From positions 1 to 34,917 of the IMG/VR virus record IMGVR_UViG_3300032260_000011: DNA of 34,917 nucleotides. One strand, 5' to 3'. The translations under genes and the position numbers were made by a program. This document shows, one piece after another, positions 7,235-34,811 of the stretch. The first letter of the stretch is position 1. Every line of letters starts with the position of its first letter. The DNA is from a virus. Lineage: Duplodnaviria; Caudoviricetes. The notes under the pieces are model-generated. The model saw only the letters and a program-made list of their open reading frames with translations. It was not told the origin of the DNA and made no database searches.

Positions 7235-7551
7235 TGGCGAGTCTACTTGTAAATAGTGATAACGTAATCCAATTAACTGAGTTGAAGAATCTTGTTGATG
7301 GCGCGTATTTAAACGGTGCTACCGTAACAGTGACTATCGTTGATTCTGATGGTGTTGACGTTACAGGCGAGACATGGCCGTTATCAATGCCATATGTGGC
7401 GAGTTCAGACGGTGTTTACAGGGCGAACCTTGCAGACACGATATCTTTTGTCGCCGAGTGTAAATACACCGCTACAGTAATTGCAGATGCAGGCGCAGAC
7501 GGTAAGCGAGAATGGGTTACAGATGTAATTGCTAGGGTCAGTGTTGGTTAA
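7234..7551 (+). CDS. hypothetical Ig-like/beta-sandwich protein
   Basis: ATVTVTIVD...DGVYRA...YTATV pattern; TGATG coupling. Confidence 0.65.
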   Translation: MASLLVNSDNVIQLTELKNLVDGAYLNGATVTVTIVDSDGVDVTGETWPLSMPYVASSDGVYRANLADTISFVAECKYTATVIADAGADGKREWVTDVIARVSVG

Positions 7552-7562
7552 CGGGGAATAAA

Positions 7563-8804
7563 ATGGCACATATTCACACATTACCAGACGGACAAAAAAC
7601 AGGCACAGAGATAATTGATCCTGATGACAATGAATTACACTGGCATTTAGTCAGCGAAGATAAAACATCATCCAGTCCATTTGGGTTGGAACATACGCAT
7701 ATATTAAATGGCGTGGAAACATCAGGTCCAATTCAAGAAAAGGCGCAAGACATGAGTATTGAAACTAAGCAGGCTGGCGGTAATATCCTAGAAGCTAAGC
7801 AGATCAGCAGGAACGGTGAGCCTGTAGGGATTCTTAAGGGCTACATAGCCACATGGGATCTAGACAGGGGGCTTGATAGATTTGTTCGCGGTGCATTTGC
7901 TGAATCACTGGAGCGCCACAGAAAAGATAATCGACCTATTAGGTTAAAAGACCATCATGGTCGTACTGTGGGCGGATTTCCCATTGAGACTGTTGTGGAA
8001 AATGATATCGGCTTACTTGGTATTGGGGAGGTAAATCTAGACGTTCAGCAGGGGCGTGAGCTTATGTCACTTGCAAAACAGGGGGTGCTTTCTGACTTCT
8101 CTGTAGGATTCACCTCAATTGAAGACTCCCTGGATAATGGAATCCGGGTTATTCATAAGGCTGAGATATGGGAGGGATCTATTGTCGATGAGCCGATGAA
8201 CCCGAGCGCAATTGTGACTGAAGTTAAAGCTGCCGTTCCGTTTCAAGATTTACCTTTGGCTTCCAAAGATCGAGCATGGACTGCAGACGCGGCAATTTCT
8301 AGGGTTCGCGAGTTCACAGATTCAACAGATGAGCCTGGTTCAAAGTATCGTCGTGCTTTTGTATGGTTCGATAGTGCTGATGCCAGTAATTTCGGAGCCT
8401 ACAAGTTACCTATTGCTGATGTAATCGACGGGAGACTGACGGCTGTGCCAAGGGGTGTATTTGCCGCTGCCGCTGCTGTACAAGGCGCTAGAGGCGGTGT
8501 AGATGTACCAGATGCAGACCGCGCTGGTGTGATACGGCACTTGGAGAGATATTATGCAAAGATGGGGCTAGATAGTCCGTTTGGCGATGAAAAACAATTC
8601 TTTGTTGCTGATGATGTTAAGGAATGGACAGAGCGAGATATAGAGAAATTCCTGAAAAAAACAGGATGCATGTCTAAATCAGCCGCCAAGCTTCTATCAG
8701 ATCGGCTCGAAGAGAAGGAAGAGCAAGAAGAGACACTAGAATTAGATGCAATGCGTGAGTTAGTTGCAGAAATGAAGGCTTTTAAGTCTGAGATGGCTAA
8801 TTAA
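7563..8804 (+). CDS. prohead maturation protease (HK97 family) with N-terminal HxH region and extra C-terminal domain
   Basis: KGYIATWDLDRGLD...GAF, LKDHH, FSVGF, IWEGSIVDEPMNP. Confidence 0.9.
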   Translation: MAHIHTLPDGQKTGTEIIDPDDNELHWHLVSEDKTSSSPFGLEHTHILNGVETSGPIQEKAQDMSIETKQAGGNILEAKQISRNGEPVGILKGYIATWDLDRGLDRFVRGAFAESLERHRKDNRPIRLKDHHGRTVGGFPIETVVENDIGLLGIGEVNLDVQQGRELMSLAKQGVLSDFSVGFTSIEDSLDNGIRVIHKAEIWEGSIVDEPMNPSAIVTEVKAAVPFQDLPLASKDRAWTADAAISRVREFTDSTDEPGSKYRRAFVWFDSADASNFGAYKLPIADVIDGRLTAVPRGVFAAAAAVQGARGGVDVPDADRAGVIRHLERYYAKMGLDSPFGDEKQFFVADDVKEWTERDIEKFLKKTGCMSKSAAKLLSDRLEEKEEQEETLELDAMRELVAEMKAFKSEMAN

Positions 8805-9092: not shown

Positions 9093-9269
9093 CTATAGCT
9101 TCCTAAGCCGCTTCAACTGCTTATTATCAGGCTCTATCTCTACAGCAAGATCTAGCAGTTTTACACGAGTTTCTGGCATTACCGATACCCGAAAATCAAC
9201 AAATCCATCCTTGCTCCTATCCTTCCTGAGCCTGCGCATCGATTCTGCTTCTTTAGTTGGTTTTGTCAT
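9093..9269 (-). CDS. 58-aa basic protein, possible ribbon-helix-helix DNA-binding protein (not in ORF track)
   Basis: Manual translation MTKPTKEAESMRRLRKDRSKDGFVDFRVSVMPETRVKLLDLAVEIEPDNKQLKRLRKL*. Confidence 0.5.
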   Translation of the reverse strand: MTKPTKEAESMRRLRKDRSKDGFVDFRVSVMPETRVKLLDLAVEIEPDNKQLKRLRKL

Positions 9270-9272
9270 AAT

Positions 9273-9335
9273 TGCAGCCTATCATTCCACCCATTCGGAG
9301 TTATACAGCATAGTTATGTCTAGCCCCTGTTATAT
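9273..9335 (+). repeat. attI-like array head site, copy 1
   Basis: 50/60 ungapped identity to 29466-29525; ends in GTCTAGC-CCCT-GTTATAT with upstream direct GTTA cores. Confidence 0.65.
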
Positions 9336-9337
9336 GG

Positions 9338-9853
9338 CTAAGACACCTTTCTGTGGGCCTCAAGATGGCAAAACAGGTTTTCTATTTCTCTGTGCCATTC
9401 ATCTTTTATATTCATAGCTGGTTTTGTTTTTTCGTAAAATTCTCTTGGGTTGTCACCAAACTTATAGCTCATGGCAATCCAATCAATCACCATGTGGACG
9501 ATGTCATTATAAGTTCCCACCGTCTCATGGTGATGAGGGTTGCTTGCCTTATGGTTCTCCCATGCCTCATCGAATCCACTGTTTTTCTTGTCCTCTGGGG
9601 TTACTGGATAGAAGTTGTCCCTATACTGCACAAACTCATCTTTGCTTAGTTTTGAGAGATCATGCCTCTCAACCTCAGCTCTGATTGTGTGCCATGCGAA
9701 ATCATCGCCTACCCACCACTCTTTCCCATCACACGCTAGCGATAGCTCATCAAATGCTTTGGCTACGTTTTGAACATGCTCCTCTACATAGTCCAAGTAT
9801 TGCCGGGTTGCATCTATGTAATCCTGTACCTGCATTCTGTCTATAAAAGCCAT
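9338..9853 (-). CDS. cassette 1 ORF: HD-like metal-binding protein (DUF5662-like)
   Basis: EH...HDLSK...AWENHKASNPHHHE...MVIDW; GGAG RBS. Confidence 0.7.
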   Translation of the reverse strand: MAFIDRMQVQDYIDATRQYLDYVEEHVQNVAKAFDELSLACDGKEWWVGDDFAWHTIRAEVERHDLSKLSKDEFVQYRDNFYPVTPEDKKNSGFDEAWENHKASNPHHHETVGTYNDIVHMVIDWIAMSYKFGDNPREFYEKTKPAMNIKDEWHREIENLFCHLEAHRKVS

Positions 9854-9876
9854 AATCAAATTATCTCCATGTAGCC

Positions 9877-9963
9877 ATATAACAAAGCAAATCCACCGGA
9901 GTGCTTCGTCATTAGTTGTTTAAATTGGCACCGAGCGCACCCGGTGATTATGCAACGTTATGC
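9877..9963 (+). repeat. attC-like site 1
   Basis: R'' ATATAAC, L'' AATCCACC, L' GGTGATT, R' GTTATGC; imperfect palindrome with extra C in L''. Confidence 0.8.
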
Positions 9964-10167
9964 AGTAAACAATCCGGCATAGTTAGCCCAGAAATATATC
10001 TGGTATGCTAATGCCGGTGTGGAAATGTAGGTATTCGTGAATCCGTGATTCCATATGTGCAGTATCGGCACTGGGGTTTTCATCTCATTGCCAGCGCAAA
10101 TTGAGATAAACTTAAAAAAGAAGTGCAGCGAAATAGTTGCGCTCAAAACAAAAAGTAATGTTTGCAT
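9958..10167 (-). CDS. cassette 2 ORF: small membrane protein
   Basis: Two hydrophobic segments; ATG lies in R'' of attC2 and TAA in R' of attC1. Confidence 0.7.
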   Translation of the reverse strand: MQTLLFVLSATISLHFFFKFISICAGNEMKTPVPILHIWNHGFTNTYISTPALAYQIYFWANYAGLFTA

Positions 10168-10265
10168 AACAATTAGCTCCAGCGGACAGTCAAACGCCGT
10201 CCGGGTTTGTGGTTAATTTATGGCTCAGTGTTGGCGTTTGTCTGCCGCTGAGCATGGCGTTAGAT
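10164..10265 (+). repeat. attC-like site 2
   Basis: R'' GCATAAC, L'' GCTCCAGC then GGAC, inner stem CAAACGCC/GGCGTTTG, L' GCTGAGC, R' GTTAGAT. Confidence 0.88.
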
Positions 10266-10457
10266 TGCATCAAACTCTTCTTCTAGCTTTTGTAGTTCAG
10301 CAGCCAGCCATTCTCGCTTTTCACCCAAATGGCGCTTAAACATGTCATCCGGCACGTTCATCCAATTTCTTTCATCACGCAGCCCATCAAGCGTGCTTTT
10401 GTAATCATCCATTCTGCTCTTTAATAATTTTGCCTTTTTAAACAATTCATTTTTCAT
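10260..10457 (-). CDS. cassette 3 ORF: small coiled-coil protein
   Basis: GGAGG RBS; stop in R' of attC2. Confidence 0.75.
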   Translation of the reverse strand: MKNELFKKAKLLKSRMDDYKSTLDGLRDERNWMNVPDDMFKRHLGEKREWLAAELQKLEEEFDAI

Positions 10458-10480
10458 TTCGTGCCTCCGTTATGGGCGCA

Positions 10481-10570
10481 ATCTAACAACGGCAATCAAG
10501 CGGTGACGTGTTTGTCATCCGCACATTTAATCAAAATGTCTGCACACGCAGCTTATTGCCCACATTAGGT
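10481..10570 (+). repeat. attC-like site 3 (core mutated to ATTAGGT)
   Basis: R'' ATCTAAC, L'' AATCAAGC, L' GCTTATT, R' ATTAGGT. Confidence 0.78.
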
Positions 10571-10876
10571 GTAGTCCCGCATCATGCTCTCAGTAATGAA
10601 ATAGGCGTACTGCTGCGGCCTATTTTCGGCAACCCATTTCAAGAGTTGTTCCAAATCAACTTCTGTGCAGTTATATCCGGCTTCGTTTTTTGCATGTATT
10701 ACCTCTCTACCAAAACCTTCCCACTCTTCTTCTGGCTCGTGGTGGGCGTATTTTCCAGTAGTCTTTCTAATTGACACTTCCATTTCTTCTGCGTATTCGG
10801 TAACTCCACACATAACAATCGGCTCAACCTGACCCGCTGCTTCGGTAGTTGAGTTTTGTCTCTGTTCATCTTTCAT
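10565..10876 (-). CDS. cassette 4 ORF: hypothetical protein, probable start inside attC4 loop
   Basis: AGGGGA RBS before ATG at 10876 (ORF track extends to 10903); stop in R' of attC3. Confidence 0.65.
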   Translation of the reverse strand: MKDEQRQNSTTEAAGQVEPIVMCGVTEYAEEMEVSIRKTTGKYAHHEPEEEWEGFGREVIHAKNEAGYNCTEVDLEQLLKWVAENRPQQYAYFITESMMRDYT

Positions 10877-10930
10877 CTTGGGTGTCCCCTGTGTTCTATT
10901 CACGCGGGCAAGTTAGCCTAAGCGTTATAA
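10810..10930 (+). repeat. attC-like site 4
   Basis: R'' ACATAAC, L'' GCTCAACC then TGAC, stem CCGC/GCGG, L' AGTTAGC, R' GTTATAA. Confidence 0.8.
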
Positions 10931-10933
10931 TGC

Positions 10934-10961
10934 ACTATAACATATAACGCGTTAACATCAA
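10934..10961 (-). promoter_or_regulatory. putative sigma70 promoter reading leftward into array 1
   Basis: TTGATG-16 nt-TATAGT with extended -10 TG on the minus strand. Confidence 0.5.
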
Positions 10962-11002
10962 GTGGTTTACCTATCCCCAACAGTTTGAATATCCCTAATA
11001 TC

Positions 11003-11031
11003 TTGACATTCTTATCAAAGACGACCAAAAT
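11003..11031 (+). promoter_or_regulatory. possible promoter for capsid gene
   Basis: TTGACA-17 nt-CAAAAT (weak -10). Confidence 0.3.
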
Positions 11032-11135
11032 TACTATTGATACCGAATGCTGGCCGGTGAGATGCCGGAAAGCATAGGCTAGTGGGATGCTGGACATCGG
11101 AAACGTGAAAGTTAACCCGACAACAGGAGGACATT

Positions 11136-12317
11136 ATGTCCGATCCCACTATGGCCGATGTAATGAGCGGCGTAAAAGAACTCCGCGAAGAGTTTGAAAA
11201 GAAATCACCCGATTTCGAGAAAATCAACAAGATTGAAGCTGATCTTGAGAAGCATGAAGAGAAAAACCAGGAGCTACTTGCCGAAGTAAAGCAGAGCGAG
11301 AAGCGTGAGGAAGAGATGAAAGAGCGCATGGATGTGCTAGAAACTGAACTAGCCCGTTCAGGCGCTGGTGAAGGCAAGAATTACAAAGAGTCTGAAGAGT
11401 ACAAAGCTCTTGATCTATTTGTAAAGCAAGGCGCGTATGCCATTACCCAAGAACAGAAAGCAATTCTCCGTACTGATAGTGATGTACAGGGCGGTTTCTT
11501 GGTGCCTGTTGAGATGGATAACGCCATTACAAAGAAGATCACCGAGATTTCAAATATTCGGTCTATTGCTCGAGTTCGCACCATTGGTGCTAAATCCCTA
11601 GAAGTACCGGTACGCAACACTATTCCTGCTGCAACCTATGAAGGCGAAGCAGAAGAGGGTGGCGAAGATACCAGCACATACCAGAATGAAACCCTAACGG
11701 CTTTCCGCCAGACCGTCACCATTCCTATTACTCAGGATATGTTGATGGATGCGGCATTCAATATGGAATCCGAGATCATGGGCGATGGTGGTGAATCTTT
11801 TGCTCAGGGCGAAGGTGCTGCATTTGTCGTAGGCACTGGGTTTAAACAGCCTGAAGGCTTTACCGTTGATTCGCGCACTGTAGCAGCTGCACGCACATCT
11901 GCATCATCAGGCACCGTTGGGTTTGATGACATTATGAACCTGACTGGTGATCTGAAGACTGGTTACAATCCTGTTTACGTGTTCAATCGCACCACTCTAG
12001 CCTTTCTGCGCACCCTCAAGGGCGGTGATGGGCATCCGTTGTGGCAGCCAGGAATGAATGGCGTAGTGATGAACACCATCAACGGCTTCCCTTACCTAAT
12101 CGCCAATGATATGCCTGATATCGCAAGTACTACCATTCCGGTAGCATTTGGCGACTTCGCACGTGGTTACACCATTATTGACCGTACCGGAATGGCCGTG
12201 ATTCGTGATGAGGTAACTCAGAAGAAGAAGGCAATCGTAGAATTCACCTTGCAGCGTTGGAATACTGGTCAGGTTACTCTGCCAGAAGCCATCAAACTGC
12301 TAAAAGTTAAAGCTTAA
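11136..12317 (+). CDS. major capsid protein (HK97 fold, N-terminal coiled-coil delta domain)
   Basis: GGFLVP, LKGGDGHPLWQPG, VAFGDFARGYTIIDR, EAIKLLKV; AGGAGG RBS. Confidence 0.95.
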   Translation: MSDPTMADVMSGVKELREEFEKKSPDFEKINKIEADLEKHEEKNQELLAEVKQSEKREEEMKERMDVLETELARSGAGEGKNYKESEEYKALDLFVKQGAYAITQEQKAILRTDSDVQGGFLVPVEMDNAITKKITEISNIRSIARVRTIGAKSLEVPVRNTIPAATYEGEAEEGGEDTSTYQNETLTAFRQTVTIPITQDMLMDAAFNMESEIMGDGGESFAQGEGAAFVVGTGFKQPEGFTVDSRTVAAARTSASSGTVGFDDIMNLTGDLKTGYNPVYVFNRTTLAFLRTLKGGDGHPLWQPGMNGVVMNTINGFPYLIANDMPDIASTTIPVAFGDFARGYTIIDRTGMAVIRDEVTQKKKAIVEFTLQRWNTGQVTLPEAIKLLKVKA

Positions 12318-29465: not shown

Positions 29466-29528
29466 TGCAGCCTATCATCCAACCCGTTAGGATTTAGGCT
29501 GCATAGTTATGCCTAGCCCTTGTTAGGT
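29466..29528 (+). repeat. attI-like array head site, copy 2 (includes TGCAGCCTA/TAGGCTGCA hairpin)
   Basis: 50/60 identity to 9273-9332; ends in GCCTAGC-CCTT-GTTAGGT. Confidence 0.65.
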
Positions 29529-29684
29529 GTCTAGTGCTGCCTTGCACCCAAGCAGCACTATTCGAAACAGGAGCGGCTTGTGCTTTGCCCAATTACCGAG
29601 GGTTTGCAAGCTCTGCCCCGTCATCTCTGAAACCTGGGAGAGGCTTTTAAGCCCATCCGCTTTGGCTTGTTCCGCTGCTGTCAT
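29523..29684 (-). CDS. cassette 5 ORF b: small HTH-like DNA-binding protein
   Basis: GLKSLSQVSEMTGQSLQTLGNW helix-turn-helix pattern; ATGA coupling to upstream ORF; stop in GTTA core. Confidence 0.7.
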   Translation of the reverse strand: MTAAEQAKADGLKSLSQVSEMTGQSLQTLGNWAKHKPLLFRIVLLGCKAALDT

Positions 29685-29848
29685 GTAACGTCCCTCATGT
29701 CCCAAACGGTTTCCTTCATATTTGTAACCCAGCAGGCAACAACATCAGTCCATTGCATTTTATTTTCTGCGAATTCAACAGCGGCTGCTTGACTCGGGAA
29801 AAATTTGGTTTCTTCGGTGTTCTCGGTAATCGTGGTTACATTAAACAT
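29681..29848 (-). CDS. cassette 5 ORF a: 55-aa hypothetical protein (not in ORF track)
   Basis: GGAG RBS; MFNVTTITENTEETKFFPSQAAAVEFAENKMQWTDVVACWVTNMKETVWDMRDVT*. Confidence 0.65.
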   Translation of the reverse strand: MFNVTTITENTEETKFFPSQAAAVEFAENKMQWTDVVACWVTNMKETVWDMRDVT

Positions 29849-29886
29849 TGACTTGCTCCGTTGGTGTTTGTCTTAACTTGTAAACA

Positions 29887-29933
29887 ATTATAGCAAACTA
29901 TTTGAAGGATGCAAGTATTATTTCAAACTATTT
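29887..29933 (-). promoter_or_regulatory. cassette-internal sigma70 promoter with repeated operator-like sites
   Basis: TTGCAT-16 nt-TATAAT with extended -10 TG; CAAACTATTT at 29894-29903 and 29924-29933. Confidence 0.65.
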
Positions 29934-29943
29934 TCAAAAAGAC

Positions 29944-30030
29944 ACCTAACAAAACAAATCAAGCAGACGGGTTAAAGCGCGGCGCTTTTAATAGGCATGG
30001 GTGCGCCGCAGCTTATTTGTAATGTTAGGC
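29944..30030 (+). repeat. attC-like site 5
   Basis: R'' ACCTAAC, L'' AATCAAGC then AGAC, L' GCTTATT, R' GTTAGGC. Confidence 0.85.
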
Positions 30031-30297
30031 TGCACGCCCATCGCGTATCTTTTCAGCATCTTCCTGGCTAAGTCCGTAGCCTATACACTCCATTGGATCA
30101 CGCTCCCGAACTGTAAGATATTCTGGAAGCTCATCAGGGAGGTTTTCACAATTCCAGAACCACCAGCAGTCTCCCATGCTTTGAGGCGTAGCATGCTGGT
30201 AGGTTATTCCTAGGTGCTTCATTACCTCTTGCGGGTGCTTACATCCGGTGTCATTAGATGTAGCTGAGGCAAATAAACAGTACGTTAAGTCTTTCAT
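30025..30297 (-). CDS. cassette 6 ORF: hypothetical protein (start 30297 preferred over 30333)
   Basis: AGGA RBS before ATG AAA GAC; HPQ..MKHLGITYQHATPQSMGDCWWFWNC; stop in R' of attC5. Confidence 0.7.
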   Translation of the reverse strand: MKDLTYCLFASATSNDTGCKHPQEVMKHLGITYQHATPQSMGDCWWFWNCENLPDELPEYLTVRERDPMECIGYGLSQEDAEKIRDGRAA

Positions 30298-30324
30298 ATC
30301 AAATCCTATGGTAAATTTTGTGAA

Positions 30325-30395
30325 GCCTAACAACGCGCTTCAACTCTGACACAAGCTTCGTTCCTCGCTTGTGCAGGTTAAGCGCCACGTTAGGC
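30325..30395 (+). repeat. attC-like site 6
   Basis: R'' GCCTAAC, L'' CTTCAACT then CTGAC, stem ACAAGC/GCTTGT, L' GGTTAAG, R' GTTAGGC; 71 bp. Confidence 0.9.
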
Positions 30396-31025
30396 GCTTA
30401 CCTGATCGCCGATTTCGCAGCAAAGCACCCTATCAATCCTGTTCCAATACGGTGGCCTCAATCGTACTTGTCTGTATCCGCTATCATCTGGTAAGTAGCG
30501 CATAGCCAAGCCATCTTTTACCAATGAGCAATCATTATCAGTCTCGGGATATTCAATGCTGATTATTTTCCCATAGCCGTAAGCTCTTTTTTTGCCAAGA
30601 TGCGTAAGCTCACGCAGTAATCTTTTACACTCCTTGCGGTTGCCGCTTGCGTAAGCAACAAGCCGTTGAGTCAATAGCAGAGGCATTGGTGTATTCCAGT
30701 CTCGATATTGGCCGTTTTTGAGATTAGGCGCTCCGGTTGATATGTCTGCTTTTCCTTGCCTAAACCGCTTGCGCCAAAACTGCAAGTCCTCGCCTTGATG
30801 ATCATCTGGAAACAGCGCTGAAGCAGCCCATACCCACTTGTCACCGATGTTCTTGCGCAACAACGGTAAAGGTACGTGATCTGGCCTATCATCTCTACCA
30901 AGCCCTTTATTGGCTCCTACCCTTGGAGCTAATACCCAGCTTAATAATGCATCAAGATGTAGCGGCTCATTTGGATCAATGTAAACGCCTGAACCATCGA
31001 GATTAAAAATTACTTTAAAATGCAC
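30390..31025 (-). CDS. csf3: type IV CRISPR-associated Csf3 (Cas5 family)
   Basis: LHLDALL, PLPL, WAASAL, LTHLGKKRAYGYG glycine loop, RPPYW. Confidence 0.85.
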   Translation of the reverse strand: MHFKVIFNLDGSGVYIDPNEPLHLDALLSWVLAPRVGANKGLGRDDRPDHVPLPLLRKNIGDKWVWAASALFPDDHQGEDLQFWRKRFRQGKADISTGAPNLKNGQYRDWNTPMPLLLTQRLVAYASGNRKECKRLLRELTHLGKKRAYGYGKIISIEYPETDNDCSLVKDGLAMRYLPDDSGYRQVRLRPPYWNRIDRVLCCEIGDQVSA

Positions 31026-31774
31026 TAGACCACCTCCTTATCTCTAAGCCTCGAATATTGCCTTGGATAATACATTTTCATGTGCTCCATATCGCCATGA
31101 GTCATCCCGCCCAACGTAGGTAATGCCCACGACAATCGTATATCTTCTGGTTGGAAAAACCTGTTTTTGAAATAGCACGGATTGATCTCAATATCATTGA
31201 GAACCATGTAGGCAAACACATCATCAGCATTCCAAATGCTTAATGGATTACACCTCATTACTCCGCTTTTCAATTTATATGTATGGCCACGCTTACATAG
31301 GTTTAATTTTCTAGCCCTACTTTCAGCCATCCGTAACCCAAGCATTACACCATTACAGCCAAGCTCAAGCCTGGCATCATCAAGCACAGATATAAAGCCA
31401 TCTTTAGTGAGTGAGTGAGATTGAGCACATAGATTGTCATGCCCAATATTGCACTTACAAGCCGCCTCCCAAATTGAAAAATCAGGCTCTACAAGAATAT
31501 AATCAAACCCATTGTTTTGTTTTATTCGCTCAGCGTATTCTCTTTTTTCCGGCCAATCGCAATCATCAAACTGTATTAGTATTGGTAGGCTATCATCTAT
31601 TGATCTAGCAAGATGAGTCATTGCCGTTGAATCTTTGCCTGTTGACCACGACAAGCAGTAATCATTGTCTTCAATCGCGGATGTTATTATCTGCTTTGCT
31701 TTACTTAGCTTTGCTTTAAAAGAGTAGCTTTTGGCGTGGAGTTTCCACTCCATTATTTTCATCTCTTTTTTCAT
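31025..31774 (-). CDS. cysH: CysH/PAPS-reductase-like (PP-loop) protein of type IV-B locus
   Basis: SWSTGKDS PP-loop, GLRMAES..R, CNPLSIWNADDVFAY. Confidence 0.85.
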   Translation of the reverse strand: MKKEMKIMEWKLHAKSYSFKAKLSKAKQIITSAIEDNDYCLSWSTGKDSTAMTHLARSIDDSLPILIQFDDCDWPEKREYAERIKQNNGFDYILVEPDFSIWEAACKCNIGHDNLCAQSHSLTKDGFISVLDDARLELGCNGVMLGLRMAESRARKLNLCKRGHTYKLKSGVMRCNPLSIWNADDVFAYMVLNDIEINPCYFKNRFFQPEDIRLSWALPTLGGMTHGDMEHMKMYYPRQYSRLRDKEVV

Positions 31775-32435
31775 TTTTCAATTCCTCTTGGCTAGGCAGC
31801 AGATAGCATAAAAACGCATACAATGAGCTATTAACTTTAGGCTTTGCCCATGCTTCAAACTCCATCCATTTTGACATCCCAACTTTACGCATTACAAAAG
31901 ATGGGCAATCTAGTGATTCCATTACTAATCTCCCAATGCCTAGCCTTAGTGCAGCATTTAAAACGCCCCACCAGTCAAGCACAAGATGTTCATCTGAGCA
32001 GTCCACTACTCTAGATTCAAATAGCCATTTATTTTGTCCTGGTGAATAGTTGATAGGCGCTCTCAATGCGCCATGTTTTTTATAGCTGGTGGTTGCATAG
32101 CCACACCATGGAGGCTTGTTTCCACCAGATAAAACAGACTCTCTCACCTGCACTCTGCTTAGTTTTTTAAACTCAGACTGAATGCATATCCAAGATGACA
32201 TCCTTTCCCATTTGTATTTGAGTGCAATGTAAGCATCTATGCTCACCATATTGCTGCTTGGTGCATTTAGCGTTTCGCCATCACAAAATGATTTACCAAA
32301 TAGCTTTTTTCTTGGCAAGCATTGCCCGTGTAATCCAGTAATTGCGCACACGCCATCAACCAGATCACCATCATAAGCGGGACGATCAAGGTCATCTCTT
32401 GACAGCCCTGAAGCAATCAAATTAACCGGGTGCAT
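31716..32435 (-). CDS. csf1: type IV Csf1 (Cas8-like large subunit)
   Basis: N-terminal GVCAITG...SFCD..S..V, PPW....TTSYKKH; lies between csf2 and cysH. Confidence 0.65.
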   Translation of the reverse strand: MHPVNLIASGLSRDDLDRPAYDGDLVDGVCAITGLHGQCLPRKKLFGKSFCDGETLNAPSSNMVSIDAYIALKYKWERMSSWICIQSEFKKLSRVQVRESVLSGGNKPPWCGYATTSYKKHGALRAPINYSPGQNKWLFESRVVDCSDEHLVLDWWGVLNAALRLGIGRLVMESLDCPSFVMRKVGMSKWMEFEAWAKPKVNSSLYAFLCYLLPSQEELKNEKRDENNGVETPRQKLLF

Positions 32436-33729
32436 TGATAGCACCTATCTCAATTAAGTAATCAATGATTGCCTGCTTATTATCGCCAAGATAATCAATA
32501 TAGGGCTTAGGGTCTGGCGCATCTTTAATGTCAATCGCCACTTTGCCAAGCCCACGTCTGTTTTCAGCCCCGAGCATACCGCGCTGTTGAAGCAATGCTA
32601 ATCCGCATCCAAGAGCAGATAACTCCAACTCTGAAGCGTGATTGTCGTAGTCAATACCCCCTGTCAGTCTCGCCCCAGACTTGATGCACTCAGTATTGGC
32701 AATCATGCCAGCATGAGCATCATCATCGCCTTTGCCCTCATAATCATCGCGGCGCGTGAGAAATTCCCACTCCATAAGTTGAGCGGCTGGCACTTGACCG
32801 CTACCCCACTCATGGCAGCACGGCCTTAAATCACCAGCTTGCATGCGTCCTGGCAATATCCTATTGCCCATTGCTGCACCCAATAACGACAACGCTGGCA
32901 ACATATCTCTCAACCGGCGTAGGCCATCTGTACGTAAAGCTCCATGCTTGCCTAGCTCCTTGTTAAGTCCATCCATTACCTTGCTTTGCTCCTCAAGCAC
33001 TCCGCCAGCGTAGAGCGCGTGAAAGAACCAGATATTTACTGGTGGGTTATCCTTGCGCGGAACTAGGCCGATTGATCTAAGCAGATGATCTGCCAGCAGA
33101 TCGCGCAGTTGACCGCGAACAGCATTACCGGCATAAAAAGGCAGGCTTAATATACGGCCTGTTTCGGTTATCGCTTGTCGTCTCCTGAACAGCGTGGCGT
33201 TGCCTGCTTTGGAGTCTGACCCATGCGCCAACGGTGATAGTAATTCAGCATTGATGCTGATCTTGTAAGTAGGTTGAGCCGTAATTGTGCTGTCATCAAC
33301 GCCATCAGCATCAATAGTTATCGATTCTACGGCCTCAATATAATCATCATCTTTTCTGAGGCCAGCTATCATCGCCACAATTCGTGGGTGATCTCTTATC
33401 CAGTTTAATACTGCGCCTGCATCATCTGCATTAACTGCGGCCATAAATGCCGCAGTCCGCTTGCCACCAACATACTCAATAGAGGCATCAACCGCCTTGC
33501 ATAAATGCTCTATCGCATCTATTAAAGTTGGTTGTGCAAAGCTTTGTACAATGCGATCAGCAAAAAACCCTTCAAAATGGCGGTTTACCTTCATGCTGGT
33601 GGCTGATTTTATGCTTCGCACCATGTCCAATACGCCCTGCAATGTACTGACATCGCGCCTAACAATAGGGTCAACCAGACCGCCTACAGCGGCGCGGGTT
33701 TCATTTTTTTTGGCTTCGTTCGTCATCAT
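32422..33729 (-). CDS. csf2: type IV Csf2 (Cas7) with N-terminal helical, probably Cas11-like, domain
   Basis: LSPLAHG, GNATLFRR, LPFYAGNAVRGQLRD, LYAGG, LSLLG...ILPGR, FLTRRDD, LGAENRRGLG; about 150 extra N-terminal residues. Confidence 0.88.
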   Translation of the reverse strand: MMTNEAKKNETRAAVGGLVDPIVRRDVSTLQGVLDMVRSIKSATSMKVNRHFEGFFADRIVQSFAQPTLIDAIEHLCKAVDASIEYVGGKRTAAFMAAVNADDAGAVLNWIRDHPRIVAMIAGLRKDDDYIEAVESITIDADGVDDSTITAQPTYKISINAELLSPLAHGSDSKAGNATLFRRRQAITETGRILSLPFYAGNAVRGQLRDLLADHLLRSIGLVPRKDNPPVNIWFFHALYAGGVLEEQSKVMDGLNKELGKHGALRTDGLRRLRDMLPALSLLGAAMGNRILPGRMQAGDLRPCCHEWGSGQVPAAQLMEWEFLTRRDDYEGKGDDDAHAGMIANTECIKSGARLTGGIDYDNHASELELSALGCGLALLQQRGMLGAENRRGLGKVAIDIKDAPDPKPYIDYLGDNKQAIIDYLIEIGAINAPG

Positions 33730-33784
33730 CTTTTCTCCAAGTTCATCTGTGTTTTACGGCGGCGGGTTACCCTTATCGTTACAC
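33657..33784 (+). repeat. attC-like site 7 (closes the type IV-B cassette; overlaps csf2 start)
   Basis: R'' GCCTAAC, spacer AATAG, L'' GGTCAACC then AGAC, stem CCGCC/GGCGG, L' GGTTACC, R' GTTACAC; GCGCCTAAC is the exact reverse complement of cassette start GTTAGGCGC (30389-30397). Confidence 0.82.
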
Positions 33785-34402
33785 ATACGGCCTAACGCCA
33801 TGCTCTCTTAAAATGGCTCTGTATCGTTTGATCTCTGACTCTATATCATGCCATGTGGGGAACCGCTCCTTAAGGTCTGGATGCTTTCCGTGAAGCCACT
33901 CAAGATGCTTTTCCCCATACTTCCTAGCAATATATTCAGCATGTTCTTTTGGTTTGCCAGAGTCATACAGATTGCACTTGACACACTGTTTGCTGATGTT
34001 GGTAAGCTCAAATCTAACATCTGGTCTTGCCCCTCTTGTTAGATAATGGCCAGCATCAAACGCGCCATCAATGTCGTATTTTCCGCACGTACAGCACCCT
34101 TTGTCTTTATCTCTAACGTGCAATACATACTGGTTGACTAGAGTCTGTAGTCTTTTGTACCACTCGTTTCTTGTCATAACCTCTTTCTTTCTGAGTCTTG
34201 TTTCTGCTTTCTTGGCCTTTATTTTCTTCTCACGCTTGATATCAGCTTTTCGAATTGCTCTTTCTTTTGTTTTTGCTGCTAATTCTTTTCCATGCTGCAC
34301 TCCGTGATCCCAGTCACAATACCAAGCAAGATTGATTTGCACCATAGTATCTATGGCCTTCTTCACTTTGCAGTACTTGCAGGTTTTCTCCTTAGCTGGC
34401 AT
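33779..34402 (-). CDS. ninG: NinG/Rap-like recombination endonuclease (start 34402 preferred over 34450)
   Basis: CKYCK, RDKDKGCCTCG, DAGHYLTRGARP..RF...NI.KQC..CN. Confidence 0.88.
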   Translation of the reverse strand: MPAKEKTCKYCKVKKAIDTMVQINLAWYCDWDHGVQHGKELAAKTKERAIRKADIKREKKIKAKKAETRLRKKEVMTRNEWYKRLQTLVNQYVLHVRDKDKGCCTCGKYDIDGAFDAGHYLTRGARPDVRFELTNISKQCVKCNLYDSGKPKEHAEYIARKYGEKHLEWLHGKHPDLKERFPTWHDIESEIKRYRAILREHGVRPYV

Positions 34403-34811
34403 TTTGTGTCTCTTTACACGGCCACGGTACATATATGCCATGTTCAGCAAGCTTTACATTTAAAGCGTCATAAATATCAGCGTACTCGTGTGTTTCTGGT
34501 TTTGTAGTTGAGTCCTTACCGGTAATGGCTTTTTGTATTGGCCTCCAGATGTGATCCTTTACAAGTTTTTCGTTAAATGGGACAGGATGGCCTTCTTTTA
34601 TGAATACCCTAAAATCAAAACCAGCATCATTGAGAGCCGCTGCTAGCATACTGCAAAACAAGTGCAGCGAGGAATTTTGTGTTAGTGTGCGCTGCTTTCC
34701 TGTTTTTGATGTTACACGCAAATATTTATGCTTATCAAACTGAGTATCTAAGTAAGCCTTGTAAGCATCCAAGCTCTGGCGGCTATTAATAATCTGCTCA
34801 CCTTTGCTCAT
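34392..34811 (-). CDS. NinB-like protein (start 34811 preferred over 34862)
   Basis: KQRTLTQN..LH motif, STTK; adjacent to ninG. Confidence 0.6.
   Translation of the reverse strand: MSKGEQIINSRQSLDAYKAYLDTQFDKHKYLRVTSKTGKQRTLTQNSSLHLFCSMLAAALNDAGFDFRVFIKEGHPVPFNEKLVKDHIWRPIQKAITGKDSTTKPETHEYADIYDALNVKLAEHGIYVPWPCKETQNAS

Follow-up and report, generated by a model that had tools for sequence, protein, structure and literature searches.

Can a whole operon derived from CRISPR-Cas (short palindromic repeats, clustered and regularly interspaced, with their associated proteins) be carried by a phage as one integron cassette? This question is raised by a 34.9-kb phage contig (Caudoviricetes; IMG/VR record IMGVR_UViG_3300032260_000011, positions 1 to 34,917), hereafter called the window, in which a type IV-B module made of csf2, csf1, cysH and csf3 lies between two attC recombination sites, attC6 and attC7. 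The initial annotation, made from the sequence alone, had proposed that these sites exactly bound the module and that the latter is an integron-type cassette; the coordinates proved correct and both sites pass a structural attC scan. We regard it as highly probable that positions 30390-33778 are a genuine integron cassette holding a IV-B operon. Beyond what had been annotated, the genes are inverted with respect to attC, csf2 starts inside attC7, its product is a fusion of Cas11 and Csf2, the arrays begin with attI-like heads and no integrase is encoded on the contig. As an overall explanation, a IV-B cassette inserted by a host integron integrase (IntI) at an attI-like dock, with a function deduced from gene content, appears to us to be probably the best one.

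Regarding the borders, the scan looked for the R'', L'', L' and R' boxes and for the extra base in L''; the scanner was made for this analysis and tuned while these sites were being viewed, a stricter first version having missed attC6. Within the window it returned six sites, each on the + strand, where 1000 dinucleotide shuffles gave 0.079 on average (maximum 2), and a seventh site with an altered core was recognized by eye at 10481-10570; an Rfam scan of the window gave no attC or other relevant family. Published attC lengths run from 57 to 141 bp (PMC5371416), a range that takes in the 128 bp of attC7. In the best fold of this site, the R and L boxes are paired (approximate pfold 0.66) and G16 is extrahelical, in agreement with the position described by Nivina et al. 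(PMC5027507), whereas T23 is left unpaired solely in another register, which has one mismatch; the fold computed as best for attC7 is the recombinogenic one. For attC6, the z-score is -5.8 and the approximate pfold 0.80. Moreover, the two ends of the cassette are 9-bp perfect complements, an earlier observation that held on recomputation, and four other cassettes of this phage have complementary ends of 8, 8, 11 and 12 bp.

The operon and the sites are also built into one another. The attC top strand being the + strand, all cassette open reading frames (ORFs) are inverted relative to a standard cassette, and the agreement between ORF direction and attC top strand, which is typical of cassettes without being obligatory, is not seen for the ORFs of the window. 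The ribosome-binding site (RBS), the start codon and the first ~24 codons of csf2 lie inside attC7, with RBS and start in its loop; at the opposite end, the TAA of csf3 is, as already annotated, the TTA of the core at 30389, and the last ORF ends on the core TTA in six of the seven cassettes of this phage. Since csf2 takes its RBS and start from the cassette's own attC and csf3 stops on the cassette's first three bases, the operon remains translatable at any landing place. A Csf2 relative that is 83% identical (P0002) retains the attC-arm peptide GGLVDPIVRRD behind a different leader, and more distant relatives begin near residue 28-30. The C-terminus of NinG, encoded beyond attC7, is normal and falls on the R' core of this site. 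One could suppose that the operon was resident beforehand and that two attC sites, inserted separately, came to flank it by chance, as cassettes are able to enter genomes at non-att sites (10.1101/2022.09.11.507474) and several of these phages have scattered attC sites. The complementarity of the ends, the codons built into the sites, a locus devoid of the operon with unchanged flanks (L141, see below) and the same pattern in four other lineages nevertheless make this already disfavoured scenario very improbable.

Is the cargo truly a IV-B operon? The initial annotation had named Csf1, Csf2, Csf3 and a PAPS_reduct protein, and hidden Markov models bear this out for all four: Csf2 (PADLOC, E 3e-42, residues 154-425), Csf1 (PADLOC, E 1.5e-10), Csf3 (PADLOC, E 4e-39) and the cysH-like protein (Pfam PAPS_reduct, PF01507, E 1e-14), the Csf1, Csf2, Csf3 and PAPS_reduct-type matches all falling under the NCBIfam equivalog cut-offs. 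The Csf2 profile matches Csf2 of the Mycobacterium complex 7JHY (E 6.5e-12), and the top Foldseek matches of the Csf2 fold are type IV Csf complexes or backbones, 7JHY included. The N-terminal part of the Csf2 protein is a Cas11-like domain. A Cas11 model had also been suggested as a check, and the outcome is mixed: PADLOC typeIV_Cas11 recognizes 30 of 40 homologous N-terminal domains, and the domain of the window is not among them. Its profile matches Cas11c (E 1.9e-4), Foldseek on the Cas11-like domain gave nothing significant, and the top structural match is a 143-aa chain of 7JHY (Z 7.3, root-mean-square deviation 3.4, 101 aligned), the sole chain with Z of at least 5 among 48,161, the score being middling for a helical domain. 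Fusion of Cas11 to Csf2 is frequent, with 443 relatives in 7,996 scored candidates, and among GenBank phages Csf2 was matched in just one of 50,697 records, weakly. In the cysH-like proteins (27 rows), the S-x-G-K-D-S loop is invariant and no cysteine is conserved, Cys occurring in at most 10 rows at any column; a Cys-less PP-loop matches the IV-B CysH already described (PMC8175902). No CRISPR array or array-like repeats were found in the window, nor any mini-array, cas6, dinG/helicase or cas1/2 among the ORFs scanned in the cassette or in the contig, which is estimated to be 67% complete. Every IV-B feature that could be checked is present in the operon.

Described systems offer close parallels. 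Like the IV-B Csf complex of Mycobacterium sp. JS623 (PDB 7JHY; PMC7937560, PMC8175902), the operon combines Csf1, Csf2, Csf3, Cas11 and a Cys-less PP-loop CysH-like protein, is devoid of array, Cas6, Cas1/2 and nuclease, and resides on a mobile element; unlike it, it has Cas11 fused to Csf2, follows the order cas11-csf2, csf1, cysH, csf3, and is bounded by attC sites, starting inside one. For each of the two domains in the fusion, the best match by sequence profile lies in the type IV-C effector (PDB 11fs; Cas7c and Cas11c); the window differs in having cysH and, as large subunit, Csf1 in place of a Cas10-like HD protein.

Cassette borders are not confined to the window. Among 121 loci with Csf2 relatives that were fetched, 65 had both operon ends with flanks, and end complementarity of at least 7 bp from a GTTR core was found in 8 of them, against 0.48 expected. 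One of these eight is the window's own record, three are a single phage, and one (L011) has a 7-bp match and no attC, and was counted as chance. After clustering at 90% identity, cassette-type borders occur in 5 of 51 clusters, the window's included, and in both orientations. L007 has attC on both sides, 10-bp ends, the standard orientation and a length of 3403 bp. L064, from a Rubrivivax metagenome-assembled genome, is inverted, with 9-bp ends, four attC downstream and an excisionase-like gene nearby; its own attC, whose left arm we take to resemble the aadA7 site, is cut by an IS110-family transposase fragment (780-1140), and a true IntI is encoded on another contig of this genome. L065 is inverted with 7-bp ends and weaker sites, and the Mu-like phages L002 and L003 have ends of 9 and 6 bp, L003 holding one extra attC-bounded cassette at the csf3 border when compared with L002. 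In two truncated loci (L102 and L084), an attC lies just upstream of csf2.

All five cassette lineages are minimal four-gene forms, and they do not make one clade: at least four changes are needed on a quick tree of 78 rows, and a single clade of the five is rejected by the approximately unbiased test (p 3e-34, on a hand-chosen 28-row subset with a simpler model). The tree cannot separate gain from loss of cassette borders; as the attC sequences and the end 9-mers differ and the orientations are opposite, separate gains are favoured, and the operon would have been packaged as a cassette several times independently. Sister loci with and without cassette borders exist, L064 standing beside L008, and L007 beside L038 and L107.

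Other features of these loci deserve mention in their own right. A viral IV-B contig (L026, 753-1667) encodes a protein 36% identical to IntI over 324 aa, with no attC found in the locus. attC sites occur elsewhere in IV-B phages whose operon has no cassette borders (L086 845-1448, L015 8731-9521, L004 1778-1842) and may represent precursor states. Finally, a 4.1-kb block of L007 (11519-15618), with a restriction-modification-like gene and a Panacea antitoxin, is absent in L009; this difference was set aside as a cassette event, since it is not at an attC.

If the operon is a cassette, can the same position be occupied by others? In L141, two other small cassettes lie between the array head shared with the window (95% over 63 nt) and the likewise shared flank from position 33777 onwards (97% over 73 nt), the distance between the shared flanks being 630 bp; the virion genes differ from those of the window phage and the IV-B operon is absent. 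Contigs of run X1 pass directly from 29526 or 29534 to 33777, with depths of 22.6 for the csf allele, 40.1 for a 629-bp allele and 98.1 for the shared flank (depth not being copy number), and further contigs of X1, as well as of X2 from a second study, join this sequence at 33772-33777 through right arms that resemble attC. The proposal of the initial annotation that the module is an excisable and swappable unit is thus upheld as far as alternative cassettes are present at the same crossover in other phages, and falls short in that no circle joint was seen. The empty site that it predicted, in which the G of attC6 joins directly to the ninG end, was not found as an exact junction; a ninG search in viral contigs gave nothing, and the 10 compared of 19 baseplate relatives (L122-L140) share no DNA with the array region and provide no isogenic empty site. 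L141, which shares with the window the dock and a 65-bp remnant of the ninG end, also holds four further same-strand attC sites in its early region (9209-11373) and a small ORF (7483-7593) that starts in the loop of its own attC, a design as in csf2.

The window holds two arrays, both headed by a 68-nt repeat (81% identical) of which each copy ends at G/TT, and three arrays, two in the window and one in L141, share this conserved head. A double-stranded attI would be expected to lack a conserved hairpin, and this head lacks one; we read it as putatively attI-like. L141 is the sole match to the motif in viral contigs. intI is absent from the window contig (at its 67% completeness), where tail genes lie upstream of the attI-like site; the three virus records examined for a tyrosine integrase, including one that is estimated to be complete, gave none. 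The intI next to attI that defines a complete integron is lacking in the window, and its arrays correspond to attC-site clusters that have no integron integrase (CALINs), defined as two or more same-strand attC less than 4 kb apart with no nearby intI (PMC4889954). Array 1 sits between the prohead protease and capsid genes, its first cassette encoding a DUF5662 protein and having 12-bp complementary ends. A 10-mer of the attI-like sites is found just upstream of a Rubrivivax intI start (L154, ~2530-2560), which may be chance.

In the mechanism that we propose, a host integron integrase would insert cassettes at, and excise them from, the attI-like docking site of the phage; the csf cassette, being distal in its array, would have been inserted first. 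It would have no promoter of its own and be read by the leftward nin operon transcript, ninG being the likely source of read-through transcription into the cassette; a promoter scan gave no excess (7 against 10 expected). Inverted cassettes would be retained since this leftward transcript reads them. The contig further holds head and Mu-like tail genes on the + strand, the ninB/ninG region on the - strand, and a terminase whose nearest match among GenBank phages is that of Aeromonas phage 56 (50% identical). The features are collected in Table 1.

Table 1. Features of the type IV-B cassette, its neighbours and the two cassette arrays of the window (G/TT, crossover between G and TT).
Feature	Position	Strand	Remarks
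Type IV-B cassette (highly probable)	30390..33778, 3389 bp	+ (att strand)	G/TT at 30389 to G/TT at 33778; own site attC7; genes on - strand
attC7 (cassette's own, 128 bp)	33657..33784	+	R'' GCCTAAC, L'' GGTCAACC, L' GGTTACC, R' GTTACAC; L boxes pair 7/7
attC6 (neighbour cassette's site, 71 bp)	30325..30395	+	R' core overlaps csf3 stop
cas11-csf2 fusion, 435 aa	32422..33729	-	attC-encoded leader ~1-24; Cas11-like helical domain ~26-140; Csf2/Cas7 ~151-428
csf1	31716..32444	-	likely start ATG 32435; C-terminal QKLLF
cysH-like PP-loop protein	31025..31774	-	SWSTGKDS; without conserved cysteine
csf3 (Cas5-like)	30390..31025	-	stop codon is the cassette's first three bases
ninG	33779..34450	-	C-terminus full-length; TAA makes R' core of attC7
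attI-like head, array 2 (putative)	29466..29529	+	crossover after G29522; identity with array 1 head 81% over 68 nt, with L141 site 95% over 63 nt
Cassette A	29523..30024	+	two small inverted ORFs; attC5 29944-30030; 11-bp complementary ends
Cassette B	30025..30389	+	inverted 102-aa ORF without family match; 8-bp complementary ends
attI-like head, array 1 (putative)	9273..9336	+	crossover after G9329
Array 1	9330..10930	+	four cassettes, inverted ORFs; attC 9877-9963, 10164-10265, 10481-10570 (core G to A), 10810-10930

Several observations pull against this picture of a mobile, recurrent cassette and must be weighed together. Cassette borders are lacking in 46 of the 51 clusters, and most IV-B operons are not cassettes; the own attC of L002 and L003 is degenerate only, and L002, considered as one half of a clean excision pair, is not the exact excision product of L003. 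The initial annotation had staked its reading on attC7 folding and scoring as an attC: the boxes and the best fold are attC-like, and the energy (dG -11.5, z -0.3) is no better than that of shuffles. Excision drops for cassettes of at least 1.5 kb when one site folds poorly (PMC5371416), and the X1 contigs contain no circle joint or back-joint. L141 is probably the 629-bp contig of X1, which makes of them one observation and not two independent ones; X1 may be the window's own source, and short-sided contig joints of this kind often stem from other organisms. The shared flanks, of 60 bp and 65 bp, could also have allowed the swaps through homologous recombination. The attI-like motif has no match in plasmids or phages, and it was found in 3 of 401 genomes at two mismatches, below the reversed control and never near intI. 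As for the operon itself, the C-terminal QKLLF of Csf1 presumably resembles a sliding-clamp-binding motif; among the tails compared, 8 of 71 from Csf1 have it and 2 of 189 from the other three genes (p 6e-4), which makes it enriched without being general.

Part of these observations would be explained if IntI had acted only once in the past, leaving a cassette that is now fixed in an array swapped as a block by homologous recombination in short shared flanks. The z-score of attC7, the length of 3.4 kb with its published effect on excision, the altered core of attC3 and the lack of an observed circle would all agree with this, as would the fact that phages with different virion genes have only short flanks in common; the alleles coming from different phages, homologous exchange through such flanks keeps its place as a possible route. 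Against it, attC7 keeps its R and L boxes and its extra base intact although they also encode protein, the alternative alleles enter at the GTT core, and P0002 retains the attC arm. We hold such a fixed relic to be rather unlikely and lean towards a cassette that can still be excised.

What would such a cassette do for its phage? We propose that the Cas11-Csf2 filament binds RNA and is capped by Csf1 and Csf3, that it would recruit the CysH-like PP-loop enzyme for the modification of nucleic acid, by adenylation or otherwise, and that this modification may protect the phage against host defence or competing elements. Among the roles listed in the initial annotation (crRNA sequestration, inter-element competition or nucleotide modification), the comparative data lean to the last, through the modifying-enzyme families that are added to the operon. 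Indeed, the PP-loop gene is present in 57 of 70 loci, and 18 loci have extra genes, whose 49 ORFs include radical SAM (5), PAPS_reduct with DUF3440 (11), ParB_N (10), GNAT (3) and methylase (1) families, with no helicase or effector nuclease family among them. In L001, L014, L025, L029 and L040, a radical SAM gene lies between csf1 and csf3, at the usual place of cysH; in L015, L016, L017, L020, L038, L107 and others, PAPS_reduct+DUF3440 together with ParB_N, and sometimes GNAT, replaces cysH or stands beside it.

Alternatively, the filament could soak up host CRISPR RNA (crRNA) or another small guide RNA and act as an anti-CRISPR. Heterogeneous RNA is what the IV-B complex of Mycobacterium assembles on (PMC7937560), an anti-correlation exists between IV-B and the other CRISPR types (10.1101/780106), and the window is without an array; such sponging nevertheless leaves the PP-loop gene (57/70 loci) and the added modifying enzymes unexplained and was deemed unlikely by the authors of the latter study (10.1101/780106), and it seems unlikely to us as well. 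The full set of Cascade-like subunits could also serve RNA-guided competition against other phages or plasmids via a borrowed crRNA, in keeping with the action of IV-A systems in inter-plasmid conflict and with the mini-array reported for the IV-B of one archaeal virus; as neither the cassette nor the 67%-complete contig has an array, a mini-array, Cas6 or a helicase, we find this more doubtful still. An RNA-bound scaffold delivering a nucleic-acid-modifying enzyme, as suggested by gene content, is the function that we tentatively place ahead of these two.

IV-B operons on viruses have been published, with their function left open (10.1101/780106, PMC11656645, PMC12669027, PMC10848311, PMC7937560), and phage cassette arrays are known as well. 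Like the phage-borne CALINs and integrons of Qi et al. 2023 (PMC9892861), the window has attC arrays on a phage without a neighbouring integrase; for these phages, cassettes encoding methyltransferases were proposed to aid counter-defence, and five of six tested phage attC sites recombined with IntI1. Unlike these CALINs, it has a 3.4-kb cassette of four genes, with every ORF inverted, and two arrays that share an attI-like head, with alternative alleles at the same crossover. The one supplement of that study that was available contains no CRISPR, Csf, Cas7 or PAPS term. With the defence cassettes of sedentary chromosomal integrons (Darracq et al., 10.1101/2024.07.02.601686), the window shares the presence of conflict-system genes as cassettes; in that survey of 85,204 cassettes, as far as its accessible text goes, CRISPR-Cas is entirely absent from integrons and defence systems have at most two components. 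The largest known cassettes are of ~2 kb, and the origin of new ones is stated to be unknown (Cury et al., PMC4889954). A full-text literature search, whose range left out most subscription journals and the bioRxiv supplements, listed no publication in which a type IV operon forms a cassette, and the combination of a IV-B operon with a phage cassette array seems to be new.

The reported limits of cassette cargo would hence be extended in size, in number of components and in CRISPR-derived content. Cassette capture has been modelled as copying from a single mRNA, and inverted multi-gene capture fits poorly with such copying; sister loci with and without cassette borders permit a before/after comparison of cassette formation. 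Moreover, a minimal unit that is repeatedly packaged, and present or absent among co-occurring phages, defines the IV-B functional unit and suggests a benefit for the phage. We give about an even chance to the broader idea that phages run a cassette economy of their own, with attI-like docks, borrowed host IntI and an entire four-gene IV-B operon repeatedly made into a cassette in either orientation, its start and stop codons being embedded in the recombination sites. If true, this economy would make the repeated formation of new cassettes traceable at the DNA level, and would provide naturally occurring plus/minus alleles with which to study what type IV-B systems do.

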